A stretch of DNA of 64,000 nt, taken from assembly GCA_951406725.2 (NCBI GenBank), contig OX597822.1:99200001-99264000 (forward strand), read 5' to 3'. Each line of letters begins with the position of its first letter. Position 1 is the stretch's first letter. Under the pieces are notes generated by a model. That model saw only the letters and a program-made list of their open reading frames with translations, made no database searches and had not been told where the DNA came from. A program made the translations under genes and the position numbers. This stretch comes from Octopus vulgaris. Lineage: Eukaryota. Positions 26,440 to 51,438 of the stretch are shown piece by piece.

Positions 26440-26470
<31 letters not shown>

Positions 26471-27869: not shown

Positions 27870-28735
27870 ACTTCAAGTATTGTGGTAAGAAGTTTGCTTC
27901 CCAACCACATGGTTTAGGGTTCAGTCTCACTGCATGACACCTTGGGCAAGTGTTTCCTACCATAACCTTGGGTCAATCAAAGCCTTGTCAGTGGGTCTGG
28001 TAGAAGGAAACTGAAAGAAGCCAGTCATATATATGAATGTGTGTGTGTGTTTGTCCCTCCATCATTGCTTGACAATTGGTGCTGCTGTGTTTATGTCTTT
28101 GTAACTTAGTGGTTTGGCAAAAGAGACTGATAGAAAATGTACCAGGCTTAAAAAAAAAAAAATAAGTACTGAGGTTCATACATTCAACAATAAATTCTTC
28201 ACAGTGGTGCTCCAGCATGACCACAGTCTAATGACTGAAACAAGTAAAAGAAAAGAAATATTTATGTGTGTTTGTGTATGTATACGTGTATGTTTGTGTA
28301 TATATATATACATACATACACACACACATATATATATATGCAAATGTGGTTGTATGGTAAGAAGTTTGCCTCCAACCACATGGTTCTGGGTTCAGTCTCA
28401 CTGCATGCCACCTTGGGCAAGTCTCTTCTACTATAGCCTAGGGCTGACCAAAGCCTTGTGAGTGGATTTAGTAGATGGAAACTGAAAGAAGCCTGTCGTA
28501 TATATATATATATACATATACACATGTGTGTGTCTGTCCCTGTCCCCACCACCATCACTTGACAACTGATGCTGGTGTGTTTATGTCTCTCTAACTCGAC
28601 AGTTTGTCAAAAGACACTGACAGAATAATTACTAGGCTGACAAAAAATAATTCCTAGAGTTGATTTGTTTGACTAAAACCTTTATGGCAGTGCTCCAGCA
28701 TGGCCATAGTCAAATAACTGAAACAAGTAAAAAGA
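27870..28735 (+). mobile_element. Two tandem older SINE family A copies
   Basis: Heads at about 27870 and 28343, each with microsatellite and 3' half. Confidence 0.7.
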
Positions 28736-28738
28736 AAA

Positions 28739-28777
<39 letters not shown>

Positions 28778-29586
28778 TATATGTTTTATCCTATATTTAA
28801 TCTTTCTATAAGGTGTAATTTTTTTCTAAATGGCATAATTTAATTTTTTCATTATTAAATTGACAAAAGGTGGTTTTTTTCTAATATATATATATATATA
28901 TATATAATATTTTGTGAAATTTGATTCAGTAGTTTTAAGTTGAATTTTTCCCTGTAAGTTTGGAATAATATTCCCTCATATTATTATTATATGTATGTAT
29001 ATATATATAATAAGGGTGTATTGACAGTACGTCCAGTGATGTAGGTGTCACAACTAAACTTATTGGCATTGTGCAAAACTTAATAGAATCATCATATACA
29101 TTTTGTTGTTGTTTGGTCCTCCTTGAGCCATGCCAGGCTCATAAGGGCTGGTTTCCTGGTTTCACTGGCATATAGACTTCCCACCTGGACAGGATGCCCA
29201 GTCCGTCACAGGTGAGCTGCTAGATGCAGGTGGAAAGAGTGAGAGAAAGTTGTGGAGAAAGAGTCAGCAGAAGTTCGCCATTACCCTCTGCTGGAATCAT
29301 GTGGAGTTTAGGTGTTTCACTCATAAACACACATCTCGCTCAGTCTGAGATTCAAACCAGCAATCCCTCAACTGCGAGTCCCCTGCTCTAACCACTAGGT
29401 CATGTGCCTCCATGTGACCGCGTGTGTACCGTTGGCGATTTTTTCTCCTCTGTCTTCCCTTCTCCTATGTTTCCAACGAAGAGCTCCGCTTGAAACGTTA
29501 AACCCGCCTTCTTTCCTGAGCATCCAATAATACTATATTTGTTCCACGTCCTCGCGTTGTGTTTTTTTGTGTTTTCTTGTTTGGAT

Positions 29587-29630
<44 letters not shown>

Positions 29631-30037
29631 AGATTATTCTTTATCAGAAATCAAAATACTATTCTTCATTTTTCTATGACAACCAGTTGCAGGTAGCACA
29701 AATAATTTATATTATAAATCTCACTGTCAGTGAGTTAATATATGAGACAATTATTCTGAGCTCTTTTCAGGAATTTTGCTATTTTAATTTAGCTGTAAGC
29801 AAAATGTTGAATGTTAGTCCATAGTTTGGTATTAGCAGTTAAAACAAAATTTATCATCAATGGACAAGATGTAGAAGAAAGACTTGAGATTGTCTTGTCA
29901 TTCAAGGAATATACAAGGTAAATGCAAATAAAATAAAGTTCTATATTAGGATTGGTAAATTGTAAGAAGCTTACAGAATTGTTTTGCCTGTTTTATGATT
30001 GGAATTTGCAACTATATATATATATATATATATATAA

Positions 30038-30228
30038 TTACATACATATAAGACTGATGACCACTAAGTGGACATCCCTGTATCTTTACATTTATCTTGC
30101 TCACTTACGTTCTGGCGTTTGCTAAATTTTCTTGAGATAATTCCTTTCTTAGTGGTAAGACCATAGGGTGTCGACTTCTCGCATAATGGATGTCCACTTA
30201 GTGGTCATCCCTCTTATATGTATGCAAT
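30038..30228. repeat. Short element with about 40-bp inverted ends
   Basis: catacatataagactgatgaccactaagtggacatcc ... ggatgtccacttagtggtcatccctcttatatgtatg. Confidence 0.8.
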
Positions 30229-31631
30229 ATAATTTTTCTGAATCTTCAGACTTTTCAATATGCTAGACCACTGGTTTTAAATTGATATTAATCAAATTAA
30301 TATTCAAGTTTTTCACCTAGAAAGATAATACTGATGTTGTCCTCATCACCATCATCATTATTATTTAGTATCTGTTTTTCATGTCAGCATAGAATGGACA
30401 ATTTGACAGGCTCCAACAAGTTGAACAGTGCTGAGCTGCAATGTCTATTTTGGCATGGCTCCTATAACTGGATACCCTTCCAAATGCCAACCACTTTACT
30501 GTGTACTTTTTATGCAGCACCAGCACTAGTGAGGATGCCAAGTAACTAGTAAAAAGGCCCTCAACTGAGCAGACAGAGGTAGAACTATGCCAGGTACCAT
30601 GCCAAGACACTAAAGTATGATAAAGGGGACAGGCACAGAAGGAGATATGTGGCTACCCTGCATTATATAACGGCGAGAGTAGCTGAAAAGAAGACTATGG
30701 TAGCAGTGATGGAGTGTCAGAGTGCATTCTCAAGATACAAGAACTGAGAATATAGACAAAATATTGGAAAGGATACCAGCATAAAAGGAACAGAGAAGCA
30801 AATGAAAATGTATGATTAAAAACTTGGGATATGAAATTAAGGAACAACATACAACCACTTTCAGTTTCTTTTGTGGCCTTTTCAAAATTATTGTAATGTG
30901 CACAGGCATGATTGTGAAGAAGAAGCTTGCTTCCCAACCAAAGTCTTGCGAGTGGATTCGGCAGATGGAAACTGAAAGAAGCCTGTTGTGTATGTAGATG
31001 TAAATATAAGTAAAAATTAAAAAGCAAACCATTTGGCACCACTCAAGAAAGACATTTAATTTACATAGAGAATATAAACATGTAGAGTTCATATATGTTA
31101 ATATTGTCTATGCCAAATATTTTGCTTTTTCATTTTTACTTTAATCTATGTGCATACGTATATACGTGTGTGTACCTTTGTCTTGACCTCAAGTGATGGT
31201 TGTAAGTGAGCATCACAATCATAAAAGCAATGGTTCCAGTTTACCAATGAAACCATGCCCGGCCATGAGGAAATAGCTACCTTGCTTGGAAAAAGGAGAT
31301 AGTTAGCAATAGGAAGGGCATCTGGCCATATAGAATCTGTCTGACTCATGCCAGCATGGAAAAATGGATGTTAAATGATGATGATGATGGTGATGATGTC
31401 CTCAATAAATACATTTAAAAAAATTATTTTAATACTTTCTATTCGTTTTTCTATTCAACCCCAAAGAAAAAATTACACACATACCATTTTATGTGGTTTT
31501 TCTATGTAGGAATGTATTGGATGTGTTTCCGGAGACAGTCTTTTACTGCTGGTTGATCTTTTTATCCCCAACTCCTTTACTCACTTCTTACAATGTACAC
31601 AGAAAACCCATTCTAAAACTGGGATACACAA

Positions 31632-31690
<59 letters not shown>

Positions 31691-32216
31691 AAGGAATGAA
31701 AGAAAGTTGTTCTATATGACCAGAATATACAGTATAAAACTCTGAATGATGTGAAACGAGAGAAGCTTAACTCTTGACACCTGTCTACCTGAGATTGCCC
31801 TAGACTCTGTGATACAGACTTTTTGTCATAAAAGTGCCTAAATTAAAAACCCCTTCTGTCAGAATTTCATGTTAATTTATGCCCCAAACACTAGTTTAAT
31901 AACAACAAAGTTATTTTACTAAATTCTTCATTATTTTCAAAAGTCATTGAAGCAAAAAAAAAAAAAAAAAGCACTGCATTTCAATGGATATAAGGTAACA
32001 AAAGGGTGAAAGGGAACTAAATTAAAATCCATCAAATTTCATCTAAATTTATTATTTGTCTTGAACACCAGTTTAATAATGAATAATTTAGTTATTTTGC
32101 TAAAACATTCATTATTTTCAAAATTATCTGCGATCAATTTCAACAGAAATATGGTAACATTTAATATGAACATTTAAAATGTATGACAGAGAAATAATTA
32201 TATTAAACTAAGCATA

Positions 32217-32627
32217 GGCGTAGGAGTGCCTGTGTGGTAAGTAGCTGGCTTACCAACCACATACTTCCGGGTTCAGTCCCACTGTGTGGCACCTTGGGCA
32301 AGTGTCTTCTACTATAGCCTCGGGCTGACCAAAACCTTGTGAGTGGATTTGGTAGACGGAAACTGAAAGAAGCCCATCGTATATATGTATGTATGTATAT
32401 ATATATATGTATGTGCCTGTGTATATATTTGTGTGTCTGTGGTTGTCCTCCCAGCATTGCTTGACAACCAATGCTGGTGTGTTACTTAGTGGTTCAGCAA
32501 AAGAGTCCGATACAATAAGTACTAGGCTTACAAAGAATAAGTCCTGGGGTCGATTTGCTCGACTAAAAGGCAGTGCTCCAGCACGGCCACAGTCAAATGA
32601 CTGAAACAAGTAAAAGAGTAAAGAGTA
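32217..32627 (+). mobile_element. SINE family A copy
   Basis: Family match. Confidence 0.85.
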
Positions 32628-33999
32628 AGCAAGAAATGACATATATAATGAACATTAGCAAATGTTGTGCCAGAATATAGAAAGTTGTACAGACAAGCAA
32701 AAATTTATTTTGGAAGTATTTCACAACTATTTTATTAAAATATTTTAAATATCTATGCACATTTAGAGTAGCAATTAAATAAATGAAAATTACTTAAAAT
32801 TTATATTCTTATGCATCTTGAATTTTGGGTGGGGTGTGGATTAATGATTTATTGAATCCAGTAAGCCACTAATACTTTGTTTTATCAACCTCAGAGAAAT
32901 GAAAAGCAAAGCTGGCCTTGGCAGGATTTGAACTCAGAACGTAAACAGTTAGAATAAATACAGAAAGGCATTTTCCTTGATGCTTTAACAATTCTGCCAA
33001 CCTTACTGCCCTAGCATATCGGTTCTGAATTTTTCTTTTTTTTTTTTTTTTTTTATTAAATCAGATTATTATAAAGGATACAAAGAAAAATAATTTCACA
33101 TGATTAAATAAAATATTCTATCAAGGACAAGAAACCTATTTTAATTAACATGACAACAGAATTCATACAAAACTATGATTATTTGAAAAATAAACCTTTT
33201 TTTCACCCTTTCTTAACAAATAATGAACAAACAGAGAATTTACTGAGAGCATTTAACTTTAAAATACAACTATTTTCAGTTTTTATTCTTTTTCCAATTT
33301 TACTCAGCAGTTACATCTCTGCGGAAACCTTAAAACAAACATCTAGAAAACATATCACTTATCTTGGATAAGAAAATATATGGGAAAATATTCAAGATTA
33401 CATTTGAATCTACTACGAAACATCATCGATTTAAAGAAAAACAGAAATTTTGAATAAACATATATTATCATCGTTGTTATTTAGTTTAGATAAGAAATCC
33501 TTTTAGGTAAAATGAGAACTAACAAATATATTATATTGATAAAAAAATTTTGATGAATATTTGGTAGGTTTGGTAAGAATGTAGCTATATCATAAATGCT
33601 TGTTGTTCTCAGCATGATTGTTTGAAGATTTATTTTCCCAATTTTGGATGTGTTAAGCAATTCTTGGTAAGCTCGAAAGAGACTCTGAAAGGTATGCGTC
33701 AACAATTTATCTTTCCAAGAGTACATTTCAGATATATATATATTTGTGCCTGTGTCACATAAAATGTATTTGTGCTGGTGTTATGTAGGATGCAGTCATG
33801 CTTGGTAGCACACAAAAAGCACCCAGCACATATTAGGAAGTGATTCACATCAGGAAGGGCATCCAGCTATAGAAACCATGCCAAAACAGACAGCTCTCCA
33901 GGTGGCCAGCACCTGTCAAACCATCCAACCCATGCCAGTATGGAAAATGGACATTCAATGATGAGATGGTGATTTTATATATATATATATATATATATA

Positions 34000-34385
34000 T
34001 CTCTCTCTATATAAACGGCAGTTTGTCTGTGCGTGTTTCTGTGTGTCTGTTTTCTCGTACCCTCACCCTGACCACGGCTTTCAACCGATTCTGATGAAAC
34101 TTGACACACACATAGCCCAATGTCATAATTCAAAACTAATGCAGCGAAAATTTTGAAAAGTTCCCCCAGTTCTGAAAAAAATCGATAAATTCGACATGGG
34201 GTCGAGAATAAAAAAAAACAAACCACAGACTGTCTAGGGGACGCAACTCAACCTTTTTTACTCTCAAAAAAAAATTTACCATCATTTTTTTTCCATTTTT
34301 TTGCTATATTTTGGCTATAACTCTCTAAAAATGCTTTATAGTTATTTCCCTTACAAACCTGAGCAACGCCGGGCGATACTGCTAG
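34000..34385 (+). mobile_element. Non-autonomous Helitron
   Basis: 5' TC after A. 3' subterminal hairpin cctgagcaacgccggg, then CTAG|T. Confidence 0.75.
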
Positions 34386-37300
34386 TATATATATATATAT
34401 ATGGATAGATAGGCACAGGTACGGCTGTGTGGTAAAAAGCTTGCTTCCCAACCACATGGTTCTGGGTTCAGTCCCACTGGGTGGTACCTTAGGCAAGTGT
34501 CTTCTATTATAGCCTCAGGCTAACCAAAGCCTTGTGAGTGGGTCTGGTAGATGGAAACTGAAAGAAGCCTGTTATATATATGTGTGTGCATGTCTGTGTG
34601 TCTTTGTATCTGTTTGTCCCCGTAACTTAGCAGTTCCGCAAAATAGACTAATAGAATAAGAACCAGGTTTTAAAAAAAAAGTCCTGGGGTCAATTTGTCT
34701 GACTAAAACCCTTCAAGGTGGTGCTCCAGCATGGCCACAGTCAAATGACAAACAGACAAAAGAATACACGCACATACACACAGATATTTCAAACAGTTAA
34801 CATACTGATATTAGTTAATGTTCCGTCGAGAAAGAGATAAAACAACAGTGGTGATTGCAGTGTCAGAGCAAATCCCTCAAGATGCAAGAAAATAAATGAA
34901 AGGATGTGTGTGTAGGATAGCTGATGAGGAAGGGTCAGTGCATAAAGGTTGCTAGAGTGTAGGGATAGAGTGAGAGGTGGTTAGAGATGAGGGTAAGGGT
35001 GAATGCAGTAAATTCACCCTTACCCTCAGTGAATGGTGAACCATGGAGTTTCATACCAAGGGTAAGGATTGGCTAAGACAGAAAGAGTACAGCATTGTAT
35101 TCCAGTGATGTATCACAATATTAACAGGGTCTTCCAATTGTTAATGAAAATTTAGACAAAAGCAAGTCAAACAAACTTAACCCTTTAGAATCTAAACCAG
35201 CCATATTTGGCCAAAATATTCTATCTGTTTTACGTTTAAACTGGCCAGATCCAACCACTCACACCTACCCTACAGTGTCATTTTAAAAGTAAACAATCAC
35301 ATCATTGAAATCTTGAGGCTCTAACAGGATAATGCATGATTCTCTCAAAGCAATATGAATAAATAATTATTACATTTGACAGACACAGTAGCTTGGTGTA
35401 GTCTTCTACCCGGCTGGCTACTTGTCAAACCTTCCAACCCAAGCCAGCATGGAAGGTGGATGTTAAGCGATGATGATGACAACAGAGTAATGTGAATGTT
35501 AAATGGTTAAATAGGTTATTCCAATTTTAACAGATATATAACAACACTAGTATAAATCTAGTAATTTGAAAACATTTGTACTTTTCTACAGTAGCAATAA
35601 CATACATACACACACTCTTTCCTACCCTCTCACTCTCCCAAAAGTAAAGATTTGTGGAAAGTATGAATACAAAATCGCATTGTAACAATATGATAAATTT
35701 GATGGAAAGATCTACTTCTATTGATATTATATATATGACTACACTTGCATTGTTATACAGATTTTTGTTTTTGCTTTCATTCTTTGATTCTCTGTTCAGA
35801 TTTGATGGAACTATCTAATAGGTCAGAGTGAGTCCCTTACGCATATAGGGAGATAAGCTATAAATTTTCAGTTCCAGGAAAAGTCCAGTTGATGACATAC
35901 ATAGCCAGTCCTATACCACTGCCACTGGGGTCAGTTTCACAGATTTATTTCAGATTATGGATCGGTTGTAGTAATACATATTCAATATGAATATTTAATT
36001 GTTGGGAATAAGAATCAATAATCCAGAATTACAGGTTTTGAGTCAGTGCCATAAAAGAATATAATTTAATATATTTTGAGCTACCATTGGATGTTAGCAA
36101 GCATGGCTGGGTGGCTAAGAATTTCACTTCCTGAGCATGCGGTTCAAGATCCAATCTCACGTGCAGCACTTTCAGTAAGGGTTTTCTACCACATCTGCAG
36201 CCTGACTAATACTTTGTAAATAAAATTTGATAAGCACTAATTCTCTCTTTTCTCTCTCTCTTATACACATACACACATGGTAGTTACTGGTGTCATGCAA
36301 CTGGCACTCATGCTGGTGGCACATAAAAGCATCCATTACACTCTTGGAGTGGTTGGCATTAAGAAGGACATCCAATCGTAGAAACCATGCCAAATCAGCC
36401 CTGGTCAAACTGCCCTACCCACGCCAACATGGACAACAGATGCTAAATGATGATGATGATTTTATTTATATATATATATATATCTTATATAATGAAATAG
36501 AGTTTGTGTGCGCGCGTATGTTCCTTATGGATTCGAAAACGGAGTTGCCAATTTTGACGTATGAGGAATCAAAAGATTCAGTAATCTTTTGACAACCAAA
36601 TAAAGTATGTTTTTTTTACTACAAAAATAATCTCAAAAACAAGGTTAGGTCGCACAATTTTGAGGTCTTAAGTTAAGGGATGCAACTCTGAGTGTGTGTG
36701 TTTTGTTGTGGTGAATAAAATACTTTTTCTCAGAATATTTTGCACAATAATTTTTAAAGAAATTTGGACATCTTTCTTACTGCTAACCATTCAACTTCAA
36801 ATTACAATTGTTAATTGTTGGAAGTCAAGTAGACTGAGATGTACATATAGTGTTATCGTATAGAATGGGAGTTCAATACAAAGTTTTGAAGCATATTATC
36901 TTGTGGTTAGTAATCCATTACCTTAAATTTGAAGCCATTAAGTCTTTAAACATTATTTTATTGGGTTTAGTCTTTTGACTGTAGCTATGATGAAGTATCA
37001 CCTTCAAAAATTTAATTGATCATACTGACCTCAATACGTATTTTTATAGATCTCTGCTTGATGAACTGCTAAGTTTGAGATATAGAGGGGCATAATACTC
37101 AATTTAACAACAAATGTAAACACACACACATATTAGGTGCAAGAATGACTGTATGGTTGAGAAGTTTACTTCCCAACTCCATGGTTCCATGTTCAGTCCC
37201 TCTGCAGGGTACCTTGGGTGTTTTCTACTATAGCCCTAGGCCAACCACAGACTTGTGACTGAATTTGGTAGATGGAAACAGCAGTGTTGTTCATCAGAAA

Positions 37301-37496
37301 ATGACTGAGAAACATGTTTATAGAGAAGAGTTGTTTGCTTCAGACTTCTAGTGTTCTGATTCTGCCCATAAGAAAGGAACAAATAATACAATGGGGCTGT
37401 AGGTCATAACACCTGAGCAAGATTGGGGTGCACTGCTAGTATACAGACACAAGGATATATATATGTGTGTATATATGTGTGTGTGTGTAATATATA

Positions 37497-37853
37497 CTAG
37501 CACTATGACCTGGCGTTGCCGTGTCATAGTGCTAGCACATGCATATGCAGCTGCATGCATGCGCACATACACGCGAGTAACGTCCAAATTTCTGACCAAT
37601 CACATACAGCTAGCTGGCATATCAAGTTTCAGGCATTTTGATTGGGTTTGGGATAGACAATTCACAAAAAAGTAACTTCTATTGATTTTTAAATGGCTTT
37701 GCGGGGTGACTGGGGAAATGTAAAGATATGCACGACCACCCTTGGACGGTTTTGAATGACAATAGAAAGTGCGAACCCTCTAACTGAAAAATTGTGGATT
37801 TGTATAAAGGACACACACACACAAGCATTTTGCCATTTATATATATAGGGAGA
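37497..37853 (-). mobile_element. Non-autonomous Helitron (minus strand)
   Basis: A|CTAG end with hairpin ctagcactatgacc-tggcgttgcc-gtgtcatagtgctag; the other end reads ...atatatagggaga. Confidence 0.65.
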
Positions 37854-38379
37854 TATATGTGTGAGAGAGAAAGAAAGAGAATTACTGTTTATCAATGATG
37901 TCCATCCCTATTGCCTTTGCCTCCAACTCATATTTACCATTGACTGTCCCTCTTGTTGACCATTCACTACATTCACCCTTACCCCATCTCTCACAATCTT
38001 TACTCACTCTTCTTGATCTTCTGTTCTCACATTCACTTCTCTCCACCTTCTTGTATCTTGAGGGCATGCTCTGACACCTTGTCACTACCATCTTTATTTT
38101 TCCAGCTCCATCCTGACTACTCTCTTTAACCCCTATATAATGTGAGGTAGCCAAGCATCCCCTCAACAGCAAGAAGCCTGTTTCTGTTCCTTCTACTATA
38201 ATTTAACCTCTCAATACCTAGCATAAACCTGTTCTACTATACTCTCATTCAGTCAATTTTTTAAAAAAGTCATAGAGGCCATGCTAAAGTAGATGTTGGA
38301 GCATAGCACAGTGCTCTTAACTCTGCAGATTCCATTAAACCATCCGACTCATGCAAGCATAGAAAAACGAAAGTTAAGG

Positions 38380-39170
38380 AGGAAAGGTAAATTTGAGCTC
38401 AGAACATAAAGAGATAGGAGAAATTCCATTAAGCATTTAGTCTGATGTGCTAGCAATTCTACCAACTTGCTGCCTTAATAATAATAATAATAATAATAAT
38501 AATCATAATAATAATAATAATCCTTTCTACTATAGGCACAAGGCCTGAAATTTTGTGGGGAGGGGGCTAGTCAATTACATTGACCCCCCCCTCCCAGTGC
38601 TCAACTAGTACTCATTTTATCAACCCTGAAAAGATGAAAGGCAAAGTCAATCTTGGTGGAATTTGAACTCAGAACATGCAGAGGGACAAAATGTTGTAAA
38701 GCATTTTGTCGCCACCTTTATTATAATCCTTTCTACTAAAGGCACAAAGCCCTTACTTTGGTGGGAGGAGACTAGTCAATTACATTGACTCCAGTGTTCT
38801 ACTGGTACTTAATTTATCGACCCCGAAAGGATGAAAGGTAAAGTTGACTTCAGCAGAATCTGAACTCAGAACATAGAGACAGACAAAATATTGTGAAGCA
38901 TTTTGTCCAGGGTGTTAATAATTCTGCCAACTCACCACCTTTGATGATGGTGATGACAGTTTCAGATTTTGACACAAGACCAGCAATATTTAAGGAGAGG
39001 GGATTAGCCTGTTACATTGAGTAGTGCTCAACTGGTGTTTATTCTATCAACTCTGGAAGCATGAAAAAAGCAAAATTGACCGTGGTGGAATTTGAACTCA
39101 GAATGTAAAGAACCCCAAGAAATGCTTTTCGACATTTTGTCTGACAATGTTAATTTTATCAGCTCACCAC
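38380..39170 (-). mobile_element. Tandem array of SINE family B units
   Basis: About 4 units separated by (AAT)n or (GAT)n. Confidence 0.75.
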
Positions 39171-39547
39171 TGCAACAATAATACTAATAATAAAATCTTG
39201 TAAACTATAACGATTACAAATTGAGTAAACTGATTTTCGGTCCCTCTTTGTGAGTGGAATTGTTTCTGATGCTCCAGAGCATTTAATGTATTTTCCAAAA
39301 CATCAGAGATAATTCCATCGATTATATTGAATTTATTTCATATATTACTATGTTCTATATTCATAATCTTTTATCTTCAACAATTTATATGGTTGTGTAA
39401 ACATTTTACCAATTGGTGTTGGTAAATATCCAGTGAACTGCAGTAATTACAGAGCTGATTACAGAGTATAGATACATATAGAGATATAACAATACATGAT
39501 AATATGATATGGAGCAACAAGACATAACCAATACCAACATTTTAAAA

Positions 39548-39927
39548 TCTATATATATAAAGCTGAAGTTGTCTGTGTGTGGCAGGTTTGGTAGCTTTCA
39601 ACTAACACTATCTCCTCCGAGACCCAGCGGAGCAAATTGACCAAAATTGAGAGTATGATAGAAGAAGGCTTGCTCTTCCTTCTGTAGAAGATAAAATTCA
39701 AATCGGATCAAAAATTATTTACATCAAAAAGGTGCTTTTTTTCTATGAAAATCCCTATTTTTTAACGATTTTTTGACAGCTGTGTCGCCATTTTTTGGTG
39801 CATTTCAACCAGAAAAATGTTCACTTAAAGAGAATAACAAGCTACATAATGCAAAATTTTTACTTTTCAAAAATTCCAATTCTAAAGGGTCGAAACAAAC
39901 CCGAGCAACGCCGGGCAATACTGCTAG
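39548..39927 (+). mobile_element. Non-autonomous Helitron
   Basis: A|TCTATATATATAA... cccgagcaacgccgggcaatactgCTAG|T; its 3' end is nearly identical to that of 34000-34385. Confidence 0.78.
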
Positions 39928-40938
39928 TATAGTTTATAGTTGTCTTTCACTACATTATTTATTACCCAATGGCAAAAAAGATGCTACATCACATTGTTTA
40001 TTCATTTTATATTGTAAATGAGCAATGGCAAAATTGGTTAAAGATTTCAAGCAGGTTAATCACTGGTTTACAATACTATTGATGATGATCATGTCAGTGA
40101 CAAAGGCATGTGTAATAATACAGAACAAATATCTAAAGGGACTTTTTTTTATTGTAAAGCACTCACTTATGGTCAATATTGATAACACAAATCATCATCA
40201 TCGTTTAATGTCTGTTTTCCATGCTGGCATGGGTTGGACGGTTTGACTGGGGACTGGCAAGCCAGGAGGTCGCACCAGGCTCCAATCTGATCTGGCAATG
40301 TTTCTACAGCTGGATGCCTTTTCTAATGCCAACCACTCCGAGAGTGTAAGGGAGCCAGTCAGGTGGCACTGACATTGGCCACGTTCAGATGGTGCTTTTT
40401 ACGTGCCACCAGCACAGGAGCCAGTTGGGGTGGGGGTAAGGGCTGACACACACACACACACGATTGACTTCCACACATTATCCATGTATGAATTTCAACT
40501 CAGAAGGCTATGGCAGAAAACGGTAGGATTGAACCCCAAACCCACATGTTTGCAAAGCAAGCGTCTTAACTACACAGCCATGCACTCAGGGGCTATCTAA
40601 AAGCTATATGTAAGAATTAAAACATTATATAAAGCCATATTGAAGACTTAAAAAACAAATCAATATATAAAGTCACATTCATTTTTATTAATTATGTTCC
40701 AATTAAACATAATTAATAATTAATATGATGTCAAAATTTTGTTGCTCAAAACTATGACCTTGCATACTGATGAAAAATTGTGCATGCAATTATTTGCCAA
40801 TGAACAGGTTGCAGTTAAAACTATAGTAAATAGTAGTAAAAGATATTCAATAGGACCAACATAAATGTAATTTTAAAGTGAAACTTGATTGATTAGTTAT
40901 GACAATAATTATTTAATAGAGAACATCACCTGTAATCT

Positions 40939-41292
40939 CATCATCATCATCGTTTAACGTCCGTTTTCCGTGCTAGCACGGGTTGGATGGTTCGACCGGG
41001 GTCTGGGAAGCCAGGAGGCTGCACCAGGCTCCAGTCTGATCTGGCAGTGTTTCTACAGCTGGATGCCCTTCCTAATGCCAACCACTCCGTGAGTGTAGTA
41101 GGTGCTTTTTACGTGCCACCGGCACAGGTGCCAGGGGAGGCGGGCAATGGCCACGATCGGTTGGTCCTTTTTACATGCCACCGGCACAGAAGCCAGTCAA
41201 GGCGGCACTGGTTTCGGCCACGTTCGGATGGTGCTTTTTACGTGCCACCGACACAGGTATCACGACTACAATTTCCATTTGATATTTATTTT
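40939..41292 (-). mobile_element. RTE 3'UTR-type repeat abutting the GPCR splice acceptor
   Basis: Near-identical to 4339-4700 and 6756-7086. Ends about 30 bp before the AG at 41318-41319. Confidence 0.85.
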
Positions 41293-41346
41293 AATCTATA
41301 TTTTAATTTTATCTTGTAGATGATTCGTAACCTGTTTGCAAGATAA
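41293..41346 (+). promoter_or_regulatory. Probable splice acceptor of the GPCR coding exon, followed by a short out-of-frame uORF
   Basis: T-rich tract ttttaattttatcttgtag| ends at 41319. ATG at 41320 opens MIRNLFAR* (41320-41346). An in-frame TGA at 41321 closes the GPCR frame upstream. Confidence 0.5.
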
Positions 41347-41389
41347 CACCAAACTGGAGCCGGACACAGCGAAGTGGGAAGACATCAAT

Positions 41390-42499
41390 ATGTCCCTGAG
41401 TGACAACATGACATACACACTACCCACTTGGGCTAACGAGACAACAGTTCTCAGCCAAAAACAACTTGAGCAGATCAAAGCCTACCAAATCTCAATTTCC
41501 ATCCTCATCTATGTTCTTCCAGTGATAATTATCATGGGAACAATAGGGAACATTCTCAGTTTCATCATTTGGATGAAACGTAAATTACGAAGAACATCGA
41601 CTTTTTTTTACCTTGCCATGCTGGCAATCTCGGACACTGTATTCCTCCTAATAAGTGGTCTCAAGACATGGATTCGTATGTGGTCTTACATAGAACTCTT
41701 ACACGTTTCTGTCTTTAGCTGTAAAGTAATAATATTTATTATAAACTCTTCCTTACATATATCTGCCTGGTTGATTGTAGCAGTGACTGCAGAAAGGTTC
41801 CTGGCGGTTTGGTTTCCTTTGCGCGCGAACGGCATGTGCAGTTTCCGTCGAGTCAAAATTGTTACTGCTACGATTGTCACAGTATTTCTATTGCTCAACT
41901 CACATTTCTTTTGGACAGCAGAACTAGTAAGTACTGACAACCCCGAGAGCCCTGACAAACTAGAATGCACAAGTAAAATGATCAAAATTTGTGTTTATTT
42001 CCCATGGTTCAACATGGTCCTCTTCTCTGTGATTCCCTCTGTTCTACTTCTTATATTGAACCTGCTCATCATATTCTGCTTACTGAAGCATCGTGAAACA
42101 TTGAAAAGTGCCATGACAAAGGACGATCAACACATGCGAAGCATACACCGCCGACTTGCAGTCATTCTTTTAACTATTTCCTTTGTATGGATTTTCACAA
42201 CAGTTCCTAACACCCTCACTTCCATCACTAAAAAATCCAGGAAGGACTTAGAAAGCCTGGCTGAGGCCATACTCTTACGAGTACTCAGTTACATTCTTCT
42301 TTACATCAACCATGCTATCAACTTCTTTCTCTACTGTTTAACTGGCAGGCTTTTCCGTATAGAATTAAAAAAGTTATTCTGCTGCAAATCACAGAAGAAG
42401 CATCGTCAGATAATTGTTTTCAAAGCCAGCAACAATGACAGTGCACATCCACTCATGGAACAACACAAAATACAAATAGTTTATAAACGCAGCCAGTAA
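41390..42499 (+). CDS. Rhodopsin-class (class A) GPCR, FMRFamide/peptide-receptor-like orphan, single coding exon, nested antisense in the TRPM intron
   Basis: Open frame of 369 aa from the first in-frame ATG (41390); the track's TTG start at 41336 is less likely. Seven hydrophobic segments with TM1 GTIGN, TM2 LAISD, TM3 Cys and TAERFLAVWFPL, ECL2 Cys, TM5 P, TM6 TTVP and TM7 NHAINFFLYC. N-terminal sequons NMT and NET. No stops or frameshifts. Confidence 0.95.
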   Translation: MSLSDNMTYTLPTWANETTVLSQKQLEQIKAYQISISILIYVLPVIIIMGTIGNILSFIIWMKRKLRRTSTFFYLAMLAISDTVFLLISGLKTWIRMWSYIELLHVSVFSCKVIIFIINSSLHISAWLIVAVTAERFLAVWFPLRANGMCSFRRVKIVTATIVTVFLLLNSHFFWTAELVSTDNPESPDKLECTSKMIKICVYFPWFNMVLFSVIPSVLLLILNLLIIFCLLKHRETLKSAMTKDDQHMRSIHRRLAVILLTISFVWIFTTVPNTLTSITKKSRKDLESLAEAILLRVLSYILLYINHAINFFLYCLTGRLFRIELKKLFCCKSQKKHRQIIVFKASNNDSAHPLMEQHKIQIVYKRSQ

Positions 42500-43226
42500 A
42501 CCAACAACTTGACTTTAGAATGCAAACACAAAAGAGATGACCACCTCACCCCGAAAATAATGACTGATATTTTACAATAGTTTCAGAGTAAGAATTATAG
42601 AAACATACAGAATTATGTAGAGTTATGTAGAGTAGGAATTATACAGCGTGGATAAATTTCTAAACAATCTTTGTCAATAATTCAAGAGTAATATAAAACA
42701 AGACATAATTCTTTTTAAACAACATTATTCACAAGTTAATGGAGAACATGATTATTTCATTGAATTAATTCTAAAATGAAATCAACTGAGAAAGATTTAT
42801 TTTATATCCTAAAACATTATCAAAAGATAAGAGACAAAGATTTATAAAAAATAATAATATAATTTTGAATATCAATCAGAGAATGTCATTAAGTAGTCAC
42901 TCTACACTGTCACAAATTTTTGCTGTACTTTTCAATGAAATTGGTTCTCTTTATAATCATCAACTTCATAAGAAGCAATTACTAGATGGCTGCTAAGATA
43001 AAAATTTCTAGTTAAATATGTCACAGTTTCCATAATGTGAAATGGTGAAAAATGAGCTTGGCGTGAGGTGGAGGTTAAAAATTAATAATCCTAATGAAAA
43101 ATAATATTTAATTTTTACAATTAAAAAAAAACTGCTTTTGTATCCTCTTTAAAACAAAATAATAATAATAAAAAAAAAACTGAACGAAAGCTGAAAATAA
43201 CACCATTTTTGATTTAATTAAACTAT

Positions 43227-43260
43227 AATAAATAGATAAACATGGAGATAAAATAATAAA
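43227..43260 (+). terminator. Candidate AATAAA polyadenylation signals for the GPCR
   Basis: AATAAA at 43227 and 43255, within a repeat-poor AT-rich stretch downstream of the stop. Such hexamers are common by chance in this composition. Confidence 0.25.
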
Positions 43261-44384
43261 GCAATTCATTTTTATATGCCGTTTTTAGAATAATGAATGT
43301 ATCATCTAGAAAAAGAGCAACTTCATACTTTCTCAAATTAAAAAGAGAATTAGAAAGTTAATTTTTTTTTTTTTGTAATTTAGTTATGAGTAGAAACAAT
43401 AAATATCAATGAAATATATATATAAGCATAATCCTTCTGAAACCAACCAATCAGTTTCTACCATACAAACTTTCTGTTTTAAAGTGATCTAAAGTAAAAA
43501 CCTTCCATGAAAATTTCATGTTACTTTATGCTCCAAATTTTGATAAACTCTTCATTAAAAATTAATTGAAACAAAAGCAATAGATTTCAATGGAAATATA
43601 GTAACAAAAGGGGTGAAGGGAATAATCTGATAATTTACATAAAGGAAACACATTAGAAATAAAAATAAGTAAGCATAAACCAAAATTAGCAATAGATAAA
43701 TAATTAAATAAATTCCTCAATCAAATATGCTTATTTGGCTTATGACAGGTTGCTCTACAAAATCTAACAGAAAGTAAATCACCAAATCTTAATGCAATTA
43801 CCAAAGAGAAACACAAATATAAAACAACCATTACAGTTGCAGAGTTATTTTTTAGTTTAGTGCCACAGCTAAAGCAATAATACGTGAATCGGGTCTTCTC
43901 CAAAATTGTCTTCATACAATTTCCATAGAACACAAATACAGAATCTTAAGACATTTGCAGCTTCTTTAGTTTCAATTTGCTGGAAAATTGTTTCAGAATT
44001 TGAATCCTATTTAAAATGTTGTACATTATCTCCATTAACAATATCTCTACAGAAAATCGTGGCAGCAGTTTATGTGTTTTAACAATAATCGAATAACCGC
44101 TTGCTTAATTGAACTAAATCCATTTGGAAAAGATACAAAAATTAGGAACCTTATTTTCCCATTTGAAAATCAGAATCATGTGGCTTTATCTTTTCATCAT
44201 TATATAAACATGTTGGGGGATTTTCTTTCCTCATTATACACACATCTGCATAACATTGATCCAAGCCTCAATTTCTATCATGTGACCATAAATAGGAAAC
44301 AGTTTTCAAGATTGCGTTGGTTCTCTTTTTGCTACCTCTAAGTTGTAGGTGTGCTTTCCATATTGTGTTTGTTCTTTATATATG

Positions 44385-44427
<43 letters not shown>

Positions 44428-44450
44428 ATGCATGCGTGTGTGCATGTGTT

Positions 44451-44481
<31 letters not shown>

Positions 44482-45172
44482 GATATCCAATTCCAATAAA
44501 GAAAATAGGAAGAAAGAGACAAAGAAGAACAAGTTGAGACACAATCTAGTCTCAAAACTTCAAACGTGCAACAGAACACTTCATCAAATTACGCATCCAG
44601 CCGAGATACTAAAAGGAGGAAAAAAAAACTAGGTGAAATAGCTGTTATTTATTGCCATGAACACCAATAAAAAAAATTAAAAGATTTTTGCCCCCAAAAA
44701 AAAACAAAAACAAAAACAAAAAAAAAACAAAACATTGCTGTCATCATGTGAAGAATTATTTCTTCAAAAATGAATCAACTTAATAAACCATTAAACTCAG
44801 AGAAGAGAAAGCAGGTCTGTATAACATTAAACATTGATTTATGAATGTTTTCAGTGTTCACTGCCGGAGTTGGAAGATTATAACCAAATTACCAAAACTA
44901 AGGAATGGGCTTTTGTGTCTTGAATACAATGATGGATTTGTAGCATGGCTCAAGAACTACAGACCAAGAACGCTATTTAAATTGATAGTTTTGTTGTTCT
45001 TGTTTTGTGATGACTATCAATTATATAATTGTTATATTATCATAAATAATTTATTAAAACAACTGTTACTATGGTTACTATTTTTTTTTTATCAATGTAA
45101 ATATTTGTAACATTTTTGGTATGTGTTTTTTTATAAGAGTTAAAAAAAAATAACAAAAATGTTTAAGATATA

Positions 45173-45337
45173 GGCGCAGGAGTGGCTGTGTGGTAAGTAG
45201 CTTGCTAACCAACCTCATGGTTCCGGGTTCAGTCCCACTGCGTGGCATCTTGGGCAAGTGTCTTCTGCTATAGCCCCAGGCCGACCAATGCCTTGTGAGT
45301 GGATTTGGTAGACGGAAACTGAAAGAAGCCTGTCGTA

Positions 45338-45380
<43 letters not shown>

Positions 45381-45597
45381 TTGTGTGTCTGTGTTTGTCC
45401 CCCTAGCATTGCTTGACAACCGATGCTGGTGTGTTTACGTCCCCGTCACTTAGCGGTTCGGCAAAAAGAGACCGATAGAATAAGTACTGGGCTTACAAAG
45501 AATAAGTCCCGGGGTCGATTTGCTCGACTAAAGGCGGTGCTCCAGCATGGCCGCAGTCAAATGACTGAAACAAGTAAAAGAGAAAAGAGAGAAAGAG
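45173..45597 (+). mobile_element. tRNA-derived SINE family A (about 430 bp, internal TA/TG microsatellite), full-length copy
   Basis: Pol III A-box TGGCTGTGTGG and B-box GGTTCAGTCCC, body ttgggcaagtgtcttct...gaaactgaaagaagcc, then (TA)n(TG)n. The second half ends gcatggccgcagtcaaatgactgaaacaagtaaaagag. Confidence 0.85.
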
Positions 45598-45606
45598 ATA
45601 TAAAAC

Positions 45607-45640
<34 letters not shown>

Positions 45641-45959
45641 ATGTGCATATGATTGAATTTGAATTTGAGAAAAAAAATCCCATCCATTTATGTATCATAG
45701 AAATTAAAGTGATATTTTTAACATAGTGGATATGAAACTGAAATGTTTTTGGCACGTGGATATTGGTTAAATACCACTACTTTTGTTTTGGGCTATTTTC
45801 CAACAAAGGAAGCAAGAAGTGTCTTGTAGGTAGTTGACATTTATACAACTGATTAACTACAACAGCTACACACTGCTAAACTTGATGACAATTCTTATTA
45901 TATCAACTGACAATCTTTGTTGATAGGGCTTCCAAGTATATATACCTACGCAAGTACAA

Positions 45960-46390
45960 AGCACACACACACACATAAGTACATATCTATATATGTATAT
46001 TATGTGAGTGTGCCTATGTACACCCACCCACACACACACATATTTATATATATATGTGTGTGTGTGTATATATATGTATATATATTTATGTGTGTTTGTG
46101 TGTGTAAATGTAAATCTATATGCATTTAAATCTATATTAATGTGTGTATGAACACACACATATATATGAAGGCATATATATAATATATACATATGTGTAT
46201 ATATAAATGTTTACATAAATGTACATGTGTGTGTATATGTATATATGTGTGTGTGTGTGTATATACATACATATCACTCTAAGTAGATATATGTATATGT
46301 GCGTGTATACATATTTATAAATATAAAAGTGTATATATCAATATATGTCTATATATATAAGCATGTATATTTATATGTGTACACACACAA
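45960..46390. repeat. Degenerate TA/TG/CA microsatellite field
   Basis: Direct inspection. Confidence 0.85.
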
Positions 46391-47176
46391 AAAAAAAAAC
46401 TTATGGATTTAAATAATATATAAATACAGGTATGGCTTTGTGGTTAAGAAAGTCTCTTTCCAACCATGTGGTTTTCAGTTCACTCCCACTGTGTGGCACC
46501 TTGGGCAAATGTCTTCTACTACAACCTTGATTCAACAAATGCCTTGGGAGGAAATTCAGTAGACATTAACTGTAAGTTTGTCCTCAACATACACACATAT
46601 TTCTATATATGTGTTTGTTCCCCCAACAGTACCCTACAACTAATGTTCATTTGTTAACATTGCAGTACCTTAGAAGTGTTGCAAAACGGGCCAATAGAAT
46701 AAGTAAGAGGCTCCAATAGAAGTACAGAGATTGATTTGATTGACTAAATTGGAGGTTCTCAATTATTTTTTATCTCTAGTTCCCTTTGATTACTATTTGA
46801 TTCTGGTGGATCTCCATAGCCAGTCAATGTTTAAATATCAGCAGTTGTTGACTGCCATGACACTGCATCCTTTAAGGCCCTCATGCTTTCCGAAATCCGC
46901 CGAAACTACACCTGATTATATATACACTTTAGATGAGTTGTAGTGCACCTGAGCACTGTACACAATTATTATTATTATTCTTTCAAAATTCCTATTTTGT
47001 TTTTCACACAATAACTTGTGTAGGTTGAACTATGTAAAATGTTAGAGAAAGAAACCTGGCTGTTTCGTGCAATACACACCAATATATACAATATATACAT
47101 ACCAATATATACATCTAGGGGCTCTTAAAAAAAACTATTGCAGATTCACAATCTACTATTTCGTTGTGTGACCCCA

Positions 47177-47500
47177 CATCATCATCATCATCGTTTAACG
47201 TCCACTTTCCATGCTAGCATGGGTTGGACGGTTAGACTGAGGACTGGCGAACCAGATGGCTGCACCAGGCTCCAATCTGATCCGGCAGAGTTTCTACAGC
47301 TGGATGCCCTTCCTAGTGCCAACCACTCCGAAAGTGTAGTGGGTGCTTTTACATGGTACTGGCAATGGCCACACTCAAATGGTGCTTTTTATGTGCCACC
47401 TGCACAGGAGCCAGTCCAGCGGCACTGGCAATGACCTCACTCGAATGTTTTTTCATGTGCCACCAGCACAAGTGCCAGCAAGGCGACGCAGGTAACAATC
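47177..47500 (-). mobile_element. RTE 3'UTR-type repeat copy
   Basis: Family sequence. Further copies lie at about 7990-8230, 40192-40425, 47862-48148 and 60958-61270. Confidence 0.75.
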
Positions 47501-48148
47501 ACCCCACTGCAAATCTTATATGGACCCTCAGATGCCATATGGAACCTGTCTGAGAACCACTGGACTAAACCCTCCAACGCAGTGTCCCAGCATGGCTGCA
47601 ACCCAATGACTGACACAAGTATGAAAGATGATAATCCATAATGATGGTGTGTGAAAGGGCTCGCAAGTCAATTTTACAAGACATACAGTGGTTCATAAGG
47701 ATTATCCCTCACAAGTGATCTTATCAATATAGAGGAAGTAACAATTTTTGTCTGTCACCTATACATCTAACCATTCAGATCAGCAATGGCACTGAATAGT
47801 CCTTTGAGAGACAGCAATCATTTGTATGACTATTTTCAAATGGTTTTCATCTTCCTTGACACATCATCATCATCATTTAACGTCCGCTTTCCATGCTAGC
47901 ATGGGTTGGACGGTTCGACTGGGGGTCTGGGAAGCCAAGAGGCTGCACCAGGCCTAGTCTGATTTGGCAGGGTTTCTATGGGTGGGTGCCCTTCCCAACG
48001 CTAACCACTCTGAGAGTGTAATGGGTGCTTTTACATGCCACAGTCATGGGTGCTGGTTGCGTGATGCCAGTATCCGCCATGACTACAATTTTACTTGGCT
48101 TGATGGGTCATGTACTCAAGCACGGCATGTTGCCAAAGGTCTCGGTCA

Positions 48149-48192
<44 letters not shown>

Positions 48193-49169
48193 GGTGTGGA
48201 AGCACAATGGCCCAGTGGATTCTTGGTCATAGGATCATAGTTTCGATTTCCAGACTGGGCATTGTGAGTGTTTATTGAGCGAAAACAACTAAAGCTCCAC
48301 GAGGCTCCGACTTTCTCTCACTTTTTCTTCTGTTGGCCTGCTCACTTAGCCAACGGGGTGGTGTCATTTGAAGGCTAAAACAATGCGAAGCGCATTGTGA
48401 CCAGCGATGTGTAGCAACATCTGATAGCCTGGTTGGTCACGTGATATACATACATACATACATATATATATATGTATATGTACACATACATGTGTGTATG
48501 TATGTACCCCTTGACTTGACAACTTGTGATGGTTCAAAGTGACTATCACCACCATCATACAAGTGATAATGTTCATTTCCAATCTTCTGTGAAAAACATG
48601 TCTGACTATAGGGAAATCTTAGCATGCTTGGAACAAGGTGAGGGTTGGTGAGAGAGGAAGGGCATCTGGCCATCTGACCTATGCAAATATGGAAAAGTGG
48701 ACCTTAAACGTGATCAACATTCCCTTAAAGTCCACTTTTCCATGCTTGTATGGGTCAGACAAAATTTGGCAGATTTCCTGCGGTTGGATATCCTTCCTGT
48801 CGGCAACCTACCCGTTTTCAAAGATGGTGATATTTCCCCATAACCTTCAGATATGAACAATACAACTGCTGGACATGTTTCCACAGAAGATTGCAAAAGA
48901 GTGACACTATTTGTATGACAGTAAGGATCATTTAAAACCAGCATGTGATCTCAAAAACAAGGGGACACACACACACATTCATCAGGTGTCTTTCAGGTTC
49001 CATCAACCTAATCTACTCACAGGGCCTTGGTTGGCCAAAGGTTATAGTAGAAGACATTTTTTTTTAAGATGCCACACATTGGGGCAGAACTTGAAACCAC
49101 ATGGTTGGGAAGCAAACTTCTTAACCACACAGCCATGCCTCCACCTGTACTTGTGTGTTAGTCTGTCTG

Positions 49170-49217
<48 letters not shown>

Positions 49218-49780
49218 TGTGTGTGTGTGTGTGTAATGGGTTTCATGCATTCATTTATGAGTGTGTTTGTTTCTTCCCAATCAGAATTGCAATCCCTCCT
49301 AAATAGTTCATAATATATATATATATATTGTATTTTGAACAACTTAATTATTATTGAAATATAAACATAATATTTACTATATACACAAAAATAATGTTCA
49401 TGCAGTTTTTCTATTTGATTTATTTACATGCTTTATAATTGTTTATCTTAAATAAAAAATATTTTTCTTTGGAAAATGATTTTGTTTTCAAAAAGAAAAA
49501 TAATGAATCTCTTATATCGTCGTCAGTGTCATCGCTGCCACCATCATCACCTTTTTAATGTTTGCATGGGTCAAACAGAATTTGGTGAGACATATTTTCA
49601 ATGGTAGGATGCCCTTCCTGTCACCAACTCTCACTTGCACCTAAGTAAGGTAATATTTCCCCCATGGCCAGACAGGTTTTTTCACAGAAGACTGAAGTAA
49701 ACAACACTGCCTATATGAGGGTGATGCTCATTTACTAACACCATGTTATATCAAGTTGGGGGTCAAGACAAACATGCGTA

Positions 49781-49993
49781 CGAAGGGGTGCTGAAAAGTT
49801 CCCGGCTTTAAGGATATCGCAAAAGGCCTGGTTGGAAACCCGGCCTTCTGAGTTCTTTTACAGGGTTAAGAAAACCTGAAGGATCATTGCGATAAGTATG
49901 TGAATCTGAGAGGAGAATGTGCTGAATGAAATTATAACTGATCCTCCTGTATTTTCTTCTACCCAAAGCCAGGAACTTTTCAGCACTTCCTTG
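49781..49993. mobile_element. Mariner-type MITE
   Basis: TA|CGAAGGGGTGCTGAAAAGTTCC...GGAACTTTTCAGCACTTCCTTG|TA; a partial end also occurs at about 2062. Confidence 0.8.
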
Positions 49994-50574
49994 TATATAT
50001 AGATACAAGTACTTGTTCTTGTGACAGCAGTCACACTGAGTGGGTTGAACCCAGCTCTGACAAACTTCACCATGTCCCTCACGACTGCTGACTACATCTG
50101 ACAGCCGGCCTCAGCAGGAATACAAGTTCACATGTGGTTCCTGATCACATGCATACACACTTTGGTATAGTGTGATCCATAACATATCAACTTGTCAACG
50201 ATTGTTGACCATCACAGAGGATTTTCTGACCAAGTCACCATTGATTATTGGAAAAGTCATAGACTGGGTTTGGAGTAGGTGGTACATATGCTATTAACCC
50301 ATAGCTAGGACCCTAACAAGTGCTACTACTCCAGGTCAAGTAGACTTGAGATCATCAGTGGCTAAAGGGTGGTGCCTCACTCCTCAAAACATTATGCTAC
50401 CTTATTAATAATAATTTCGCTTTTGGATTTGACTCAAAACTATTGAAAAGGTTGCAAAATGCAACAAAAATTTTAGAAAAATAAAGAAGAAATAAGTGGA
50501 AATTTTACCGGTGAGTGTCTTAAATTATAAGGCACCAAAAGAGAATGACTCTCCCCAGACACAACAGAATAATA

Positions 50575-50770
50575 AAGCCTGAAAATTTGGGGGAGGGGAC
50601 TAGTTGATTAGATCGACACCAGTGTTTCACTGGTACTTAATTTATCAACCCTGAAAGGATGACATGCAAAGTTGGTCCTGGCCTAATTTGAACTCAGAAT
50701 GTAGCGACAGATGAAATGCCGCTAAGCATTCTGCCCAACGTGCTAACAATTCCGCCAACCTGCTGCCTTT

Positions 50771-50812
<42 letters not shown>

Positions 50813-51200
50813 CCTTTCTACTATAGGCACAAGGCATTGAAATATTGGGGGAAGGTTAAGTTCATTACATTGACCACAGTACTTGGCTGGTACTTATTTC
50901 ATTGATCCCAAATGGATGAAAGGCAAAGTCGATGTCAAGGTAGATGAAATACAGCTAAGCATTTCACCTGGTGTGGATAATAATAATGGTTTCAAATTTT
51001 GCCACAAGAGCAGCCAATTTGGGGGAGGGGATGAATCAATTACATCGACTCTAGTGCTCAACTGGTACTTCTTTTATCGACCCCAAAAGGATGAAAGGTA
51101 AAGTTAACATCAGTGGAAATTGAACTCAGAACATATCGACAGATGAAATACTGCTAAGCATTTCACCCGGCATGCTAACCACACTGCCAGCTTGTCATCT
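50575..51200 (-). mobile_element. Tandem array of SINE family B units just downstream (TRPM sense) of the S1-S2 exon
   Basis: About 3 units separated by (AAT)n. Confidence 0.75.
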
Positions 51201-51309
51201 TGATAATAAGATAATGATGAAGAAAAGAAATCAACAGCAGTAACAGGTACCATTATGTAGGGAATCAGAAAATAAAGAAATGGAAAGAAGAAAAAGAAGT
51301 GATACTTAC

Positions 51310-51438
51310 CATGCGCATCTTTTCTAATGCAAGAGTTCCGATGTATGCAATAACATAATACTCCTGCCAGCGTGGCACTGGTAAAGTTCTTAATAACACA
51401 ATATATGTGAAACAAAACAGGAATGTCATATAAGAAAT
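51310..51438 (-). CDS. TRPM: TRPM exon: transmembrane S1-S2 (ISYMTFLFCFTYIVLL...WQEYYVIAYIGTLALEKMRM)
   Basis: Acceptor tttccttcag|ATT, donor ATG|gtaagt; 129 bp, phase 0/0. Matches TRPM S1/S2 (P..QE..VI.YI.TL..EK.R). Confidence 0.93.

Follow-up and report, generated by a model that had tools for sequence, protein, structure and literature searches.

The Octopus vulgaris DNA analysed here (G000:C9:99200001-99264000; hereafter the window, 64 kb with no N) contains a class A G-protein-coupled receptor (GPCR) gene nested within an alpha-TRPM channel gene. In octopus and in a clam represented by the metagenome contig L014, the entire receptor coding sequence lies inside one host intron on the opposite strand. 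Nesting in the same intron is thus seen at the DNA level in these two species, and linkage of the two genes extends to 16 species from three mollusc classes. These comparisons make it likely that the two genes were paired long ago in molluscs. Our default reading, to which we assign a probability of roughly 0.58, is that of an old opposite-nested pair passively locked in place.

Results

A class A receptor gene on the plus strand

The 369-residue receptor product matches the Pfam 7tm_1 family with an E value of 7e-19 (68.8 bits against a cut-off of 30.5); the Srw family also scores above its cut-off (E 4e-12) and ranks below 7tm_1. An AlphaFold model (pLDDT 77.8) displays seven long helices followed by helix 8, and every top Foldseek match to this model is a class A receptor. 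Asn1.50, Asp2.50, Cys3.25 with its ECL2 cysteine, Arg3.50, Pro5.50, and Pro6.50, numbered by deduction from the motifs, are invariant in 22 of 22 alignment rows. ERF and NFFLY occupy the positions where DRY and NPxxY are expected. The canonical NPxxY is absent from helix 7 across the 22-row alignment, where the Asn and Tyr of NFFLY are invariant, and NFFLY is a variant common to the receptor's relatives rather than a mark of decay. By sequence and predicted fold, the protein is a class A (rhodopsin-like) GPCR. An uninterrupted receptor frame of this class opposite to the TRPM strand had been proposed in a first-pass annotation of the window, and it stands with its end at 42499; position 41320, given there as its start, is instead the first base of the last exon, and the ORF begins at 41390 (Table 1).

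Automatic database names for the receptor's orthologues are of four inconsistent kinds, GPR139-, TRH-receptor-, and ghrelin-receptor-like among them. Orthology to GPR139 was considered and rejected, as the profile search favors the ghrelin receptor (E 4e-28) and the TRH receptor (2e-25) over GPR139 (2e-19). The receptor's Atlas neighbors are FMRFamide-receptor-like and Srw-type clusters. Because the nearest solved structures by profile search and Foldseek are peptide receptors, the class A relatives closest to srw are likewise peptide receptors (PMC3963977), and the extracellular-side residues are invariant in the orthologue alignment, the ligand is by analogy probably conserved and likely a peptide. 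In lineage-specific chemoreceptors of lophotrochozoans, by contrast, the extracellular face is variable (PMC11886862). The supplements of PMC8557429 and PMC11886862, searched by motif and by accession, yielded no match to the receptor and no known ligand.

Table 1 Features of the nested pair (window positions unless a contig is given)
Feature	Position	Strand	Remarks
alpha-TRPM exon A (Pfam PF25508)	60547..60772	-	AG/GT ends
alpha-TRPM exon B	59975..60139	-	AG/GT ends
alpha-TRPM exon C	57949..58167	-	AG/GT ends
alpha-TRPM exon D (S1-S2)	51310..51438	-	AG/GT ends
alpha-TRPM exon E (S2-S3 linker to S4-S5 linker)	173..421	-	AG/GT ends
Host intron, phase 0, directly after helix S2 (residues 945/946 of P0122)	422..51309	-	50,888 bp
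Optional 18-nt alpha-TRPM micro-exon (locus L012, outside the window)	G000:C9:99277570-99277587	-	AG/GT ends
Orphan class A GPCR coding sequence	41390..42499	+	369 aa, intronless coding sequence; 99% to O. bimaculoides XP_014787600
Last exon of receptor transcript	41320..44371	+	70-nt part of 5' UTR, coding sequence, at least 1.9 kb of 3' UTR; from assembled contigs
Pyrimidine-rich tract and AG splice acceptor of receptor last exon	41291..41319	+	From sequence and contig starts
Out-of-frame upstream ORF, eight codons, from first base of receptor last exon	41320..41346	+	From sequence
High-copy interspersed repeat directly 5' of receptor acceptor	40936..41280		Summed contig depth thousands to millions; approximate edges

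The probable receptor transcript and selection on the coding sequence

Four of the 24 sequencing runs listed were examined; none is on record as RNA, so that their identity as RNA is a guess, and their contigs show presence only. A 3242-letter contig from run X1 spans 41319-44371, and its first 152 letters match nowhere in the region 38500-44400. Contigs from runs X5 and X9, which belong to separate studies, likewise start at 41319, while a contig from the far larger run X17 runs across this site. The coincidence of the X1, X5, and X9 starts with the acceptor at 41319/41320 indicates that the receptor is likely transcribed and spliced. One or more 5' exons of its mRNA likely lie upstream of 38500, so that only the coding region is intronless, and the true 3' end of the last exon lies beyond the region examined (38500-44400). 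Among the coding differences listed between the contigs and the window, four are shown (three synonymous, one Ile to Val), and the table has 116 further rows. Within a short tandem repeat stretch of the 3' UTR, at ~42613, the X5, X9, and X17 contigs carry a 10-letter deletion that X1 does not. Copies similar to the repeat that abuts the acceptor lie at 6776, 9858, 47129, and 60925, for which SINE-like is a tentative label.

Compared with two clam-type orthologues, the receptor's synonymous sites are saturated (pS 0.82-0.92) against a dN of 0.23-0.46, a pattern that identifies it, at the level of sequence, as an apparently live gene under purifying selection. The first-pass annotation had noted that a silent receptor, or a dN/dS of about 1, would speak against its proposal; likely transcription and the gap between pS and dN point in the opposite direction.

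The host is an alpha-TRPM gene with several very long introns

Five minus-strand exons of the channel, A to E, fall within the window. When joined, they yield 329 codons with no stop, separated by introns of 407, 1807, 6510, and 50,888 bp. The in-frame join of exons D and E, which the first-pass annotation had proposed, is borne out by the AG/GT ends, the lack of a stop, and the contiguity of the residues in the O. vulgaris TRPM protein P0122. This 945/946 join is ungapped in P0122 and in 29 other alignment rows, up to fish TRPM3, and such agreement in 30 of 30 rows implies that no exon is missing from the 50,888-bp intron. The same annotation had called this intron far longer than the others, which is correct inside the window but not gene-wide. 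The whole gene spans ~552 kb, and the largest of its 23 inter-exon intervals measure ~288, 51, 45, 22, and 19 kb, placing the host intron second, with interval edges that are approximate and one interval that may conceal a missed exon. An intron of 50.9 kb is unexceptional for this gene. The ~288-kb first interval occupies G000:C9:99439748-99727461.

A tblastn search with all collected proteins detects no further gene in the 50,888-bp intron (its matches are confined to the receptor and TRPM exons A to E), and no Rfam match occurs in the 64-kb window. A GC-richer stretch at 58300-59200, within a TRPM intron, contains frames that resemble a decayed LINE fragment.

Exon E is 100% identical to P0122, whose cluster contains XP_052826705, a protein listed under TRPM-alpha (PMC13143021, Table S1), and we adopt this placement from that table. 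The alpha-TRPM clade unites vertebrate TRPM1, 3, 6, and 7 (PMC13402157). The octopus channel is an alpha-TRPM and a co-orthologue of TRPM1/3/6/7, not an orthologue of TRPM1/3. Elsewhere in the genome (L093:3473-4471; G000:C7, ~67.31 Mb, plus strand), a single-exon frame of 332 codons encodes a complete TRP-like transmembrane region together with the TRP box. It is 26% identical to TRPM, its Ion_trans match (E 3e-5) falls below the cut-off, and a TRPN- or TRPC-like affiliation is a guess.

The receptor is an old mollusc orthologue

A search of the octopus genome with the receptor returns at least 88 matches including the receptor itself; the rest share at most 36% identity with it and are mostly single-frame. 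Orthologues from bivalves and limpets are 44-51% identical to the octopus protein. Two trees, one with 174 rows and one with 53, place the sequences from octopods, limpets, abalone, caenogastropods, and bivalves in one clade (FastTree support 0.975; quick-tree SH-aLRT 96) that excludes all eight octopus paralogues included. On this phylogeny the receptor is best described as an old single-copy orthologue conserved in molluscs. Nine of the ten clusters examined for linkage outside molluscs belong to its sister clade, and among them is CAH1797089 from the annelid Owenia; no Owenia TRPM is present among the TRPM matches obtained.

Some distant relatives are arranged in tandem. About 20 single-frame copies, some with stops, cluster at G000:C6:67.09-67.77 Mb, likely a lineage-specific expansion, and smaller clusters lie on C5, C6 (114.6 Mb), and C20. 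In Saccostrea cucullata, two near-identical receptor copies (XP_062571903 and XP_062571917) share one 0.5-Mb scaffold with TRPM and represent either a local duplication or an uncollapsed haplotype.

Receptor and channel genes stay together across molluscs

The receptor and TRPM orthologues reside on the same contig in 16 of the 16 molluscs in which both could be placed: two Octopus species, Argonauta, two Patella, Haliotis rufescens, Littorina, two Mytilus, Pecten, Argopecten, Mizuhopecten, two Saccostrea, Mercenaria, and Dreissena. This assignment compares contig sizes and accessions between the two orthologues. The species do not count as independent observations, and two of the 16 shared placements are scaffolds of just 0.5 and 0.7 Mb. 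Ylistrum, two further Haliotis, and Batillaria were not placeable for linkage. No receptor orthologue was identified among the matches for chitons, Solemya, Magallana, or heterobranch gastropods, and receptor losses or un-nesting in heterobranchs, chitons, and Magallana may be overlooked. In the 13 species whose two accessions come from a single annotation run, the listed cluster members are adjacent in seven, within 2-4 in three, and 10, 40, and 58 apart in the others, accession order being an indirect measure of position. In Patella caerulea, the receptor tag SNE40_012230 falls between the two TRPM pieces 012229 (N-terminal) and 012231 (C-terminal). The C-terminal piece starts at residue 1032, so that the tags establish nesting but not the identity of the intron.

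To compare the arrangement at the DNA level, we draw on a scan of metagenome contigs that gave 439 pattern matches and 273 relatives, of which the best 80 of 273 were analysed. TRPM exons are present on one of these 80 loci, the 8068-bp L014, whose receptor groups with that of Dreissena in the quick tree and whose TRPM exons share 83% identity with TRPM from Mya and Mactra. The L014 receptor ORF occupies 5057-6280 (+). Exon E lies at 3208-2960 (-) with AG/GT ends, 1.85 kb from the receptor ATG, and is followed by the next exon at 1516-1340; its acceptor is at the same phase-0 position as in octopus. Exon D is absent from the 8-kb contig, and the same queries detect it in the octopus window at E 1e-6 to 1e-26. 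The shared acceptor and orientation place the clam receptor, as far as sequence can tell, antisense in the D-E intron as in octopus, on a contig that stops short of exon D.

The distance between the receptor and exon E ranges from 1.85 kb in the clam to 41 kb in octopus, and blastn of the octopus against the clam introns finds shared sequence inside the coding sequence only. With similarity so confined and spacing so variable, no conserved regulatory element is visible. The 78 non-orthologue loci, most of them shorter than 8 kb, carry no TRPM exon, nor does a second clam-type orthologue, L013, within its flanks of 2.4 kb and 1.1 kb. Among 21 TRPM records examined at the D-E junction, chosen mostly as partial, four (Elysia marginata, Plakobranchus, and Mytilus edulis included) start or stop at this point or continue from it into the intron, consistent with a conserved long intron.

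The channel has an optional-exon slot in common with vertebrate TRPM3

Vertebrate TRPM1 and TRPM3 are direct G-protein targets; the optional exon 17 of TRPM3 binds Gβγ through two contact lysines, and the region is common to TRPM1 (PMC12799613). The 10-residue exon-17 insert is present in the fish row P0256 and absent from the other fish TRPM3 rows, and the Gβγ-binding sequence is found in no mollusc row shown of the TRPM alignment. Isoforms nevertheless differ at exactly this position, by six residues in Octopus and by five in Mytilus, with included and skipped forms of each. The mollusc inserts have no sequence in common with the TRPM3 segment and contain neither of the Gβ-contact lysines. 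In the alignment, the optional-exon slot is common to mollusc alpha-TRPM and vertebrate TRPM3, and the binding sequence is not. The first-pass annotation had described TRPM channels of this clade as GPCR effectors, a statement that applies to vertebrate TRPM1 and TRPM3 (PMC12799613) but cannot be carried over to mollusc alpha-TRPM through the TRPM3 Gβγ sequence, which it lacks. The exon preceding the octopus micro-exon ends in a GC-type donor, and TRPM records from abalone, Gigantopelta, Biomphalaria, and Elysia also have short inserts at the micro-exon position. The slot offers a handle on whether splice-switched G-protein control predates vertebrates.

Discussion

Why the pair persists

The split between the cephalopod, gastropod, and bivalve lineages dates back about half a billion years. 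Under passive locking, the reading we prefer, the receptor likely entered the post-S2 intron of alpha-TRPM before this split, after which no inversion or translocation would free it without breaking one of two conserved genes; it is probably still nested because extraction carries this cost. The receptor is likely transcribed from its own upstream plus-strand promoter and spliced onto the exon at 41320, and the channel transcript likely discards the receptor region as intron. The receptor would then answer its conserved, probably peptide ligand via a G protein and function for the most part apart from the channel, and transcriptional sharing or interference between the two genes would be a side effect. 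Many ancient gene neighborhoods were broken in coleoid genomes (PMC9023564), a reshuffling from which nesting would passively protect a pair. In mammals and flies, ~5-10% of all genes are nested (PMC13343718), and a genome contains hundreds of opposite-nested pairs, which are on average less co-expressed than neighbors (PMC12274878). The authors of the latter study view the nematode-wide nesting of ceh-10 in polq-1 as a by-product without specific function. As a counterpoint to passive locking, ancient cephalopod microsyntenies are co-expressed above random on average (PMC9023564), an optional micro-exon occupies the place of the TRPM3 Gβγ exon, and such long persistence is equally expected under co-regulation or coupling.

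Coupling of the two products is possible, if doubtful. The receptor and alpha-TRPM would be active in the same cells, with gating via Gβγ/Go or PLC-PIP2, the nesting as a means of holding both genes in one regulatory domain, and the micro-exon as a switch for this sensitivity. The linkage in 16 of 16 species agrees with this, as do the direct G-protein regulation of vertebrate TRPM1 and TRPM3 from the same clade (PMC12799613) and the mollusc inserts, with an 18-nt AG/GT micro-exon in octopus, at the exact position of the fish TRPM3 insert. Against it weigh the missing TRPM3 sequence and contact lysines in those inserts, the equal relationship of mollusc alpha-TRPM to TRPM6/7, and the tendency of opposite-nested pairs toward lower co-expression (PMC12274878). 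We regard as unlikely the wider version, a mollusc-wide receptor-channel module ~half a billion years old in which a peptide receptor signals to alpha-TRPM in the same cells and an ancestral micro-exon slot tunes the coupling. Were it true, an invertebrate alpha-TRPM would have its first candidate for an upstream receptor, and G-protein control of the clade would be older than vertebrates. A regulatory interlock, in which selection retains the nesting because receptor transcription represses full-length TRPM through interference or the receptor promoter fires a short TRPM from exon E (S3 onwards), is rather doubtful. The receptor's 5' end does face exon E in octopus and clam, a nested C. elegans gene induces a short host transcript (PMC12274878), and two gastropod TRPM gene models start at exon E. 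Those models are partial, however, and an assembly or prediction break at a long intron is the simpler account, given that one Mytilus model stops there too; the octopus and clam introns also lack conserved non-coding similarity.

The first-pass annotation had allowed for the mere insertion of a retrogene into a large intron, for nesting absent in relatives, and for a misassembly between 421 and 51310. A recent retrocopy, a lineage-specific chemoreceptor, or a misassembly in a repeat-rich octopus intron would fit the intronless coding sequence, the 88 genome matches with their mostly single-frame relatives, and the large introns common in the TRPM gene. The occupancy of the same intron in the clam and the linkage across three classes nonetheless rule out a recent landing, and the receptor's identity to bivalve and limpet orthologues exceeds that to any octopus paralogue. 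Misassembly is countered by P0122, contiguous across the join, and by the same pairing in other octopod assemblies and in the clam. Together, L014 and the accession adjacency refute a young retrogene or a misassembly, barring a chimeric L014 plus coincidental adjacency, and we consider explanations of this kind extremely improbable.

Significance and comparison with known systems

Because the nested pair has persisted in three classes of mollusc and has survived the rearrangement of coleoid genomes, it is a firm marker of receptor orthology. In practice, work on either gene, be it a knockout or an assembly, can disrupt its partner. One specific orphan receptor is now named as a candidate for mollusc alpha-TRPM, whose upstream control is unreported in the literature examined. 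Literature listings and abstracts contain no report of receptor-TRPM nesting that we could find, although supplementary microsynteny tables might list the pair, and the word "nested" is absent from the main texts of PMC13143021, PMC12919962, and PMC13402157. The receptor-in-TRPM pair is apparently unreported; GPCRs in host introns as such are already known.

The receptor itself resembles the Srw and FMRFamide-receptor-like class A GPCRs of protostomes in its above-threshold Srw match and its ERF and NFFLY variants (PMC3963977; Atlas clusters), but it is single-copy and conserved across molluscs, in contrast to variable, lineage-specific chemosensory expansions (PMC11886862). The closest functional parallels are mGluR6-Go-TRPM1 and Gi/o-GPCR-Gβγ-TRPM3 signaling, which involve the alpha-TRPM clade and an optional exon at the same MHR4 position (PMC12799613). 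The octopus channel differs in lacking the binding sequence, and the nested receptor is class A rather than class C. We know of no genomic nesting of the mGluR6-TRPM1 and Gi/o-GPCR-TRPM3 pairs in vertebrates.

Vertebrate orphan GPCR genes located in host introns include GPR52 in RABGAP1L, LPAR6 in RB1, and GPR18 and GPR183 in UBAC2. Gpr21 in Rabgap1 is similar in being a class A receptor with an intronless coding sequence in a long intron of an unrelated gene (PMC4813635). There, however, receptor family and host are different and Gpr21 is drawn on the same (positive) strand, whereas the octopus host is a channel of a G-protein-regulated clade. The microRNAs mir-211 and mir-204, in introns of vertebrate TRPM1 and TRPM3, are likewise long-lived passengers of an alpha-TRPM intron (PMC13143021). 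The octopus passenger is instead an antisense protein gene, in a window devoid of Rfam matches. The mir-211/mir-204 host intron is probably also a different, N-terminal one. A further parallel is ceh-10 in polq-1 of nematodes, where a small conserved gene lies within a host intron on the opposite strand and is retained on the scale of a phylum (PMC12274878); in octopus, by comparison, the pair consists of a receptor inside an ion channel.
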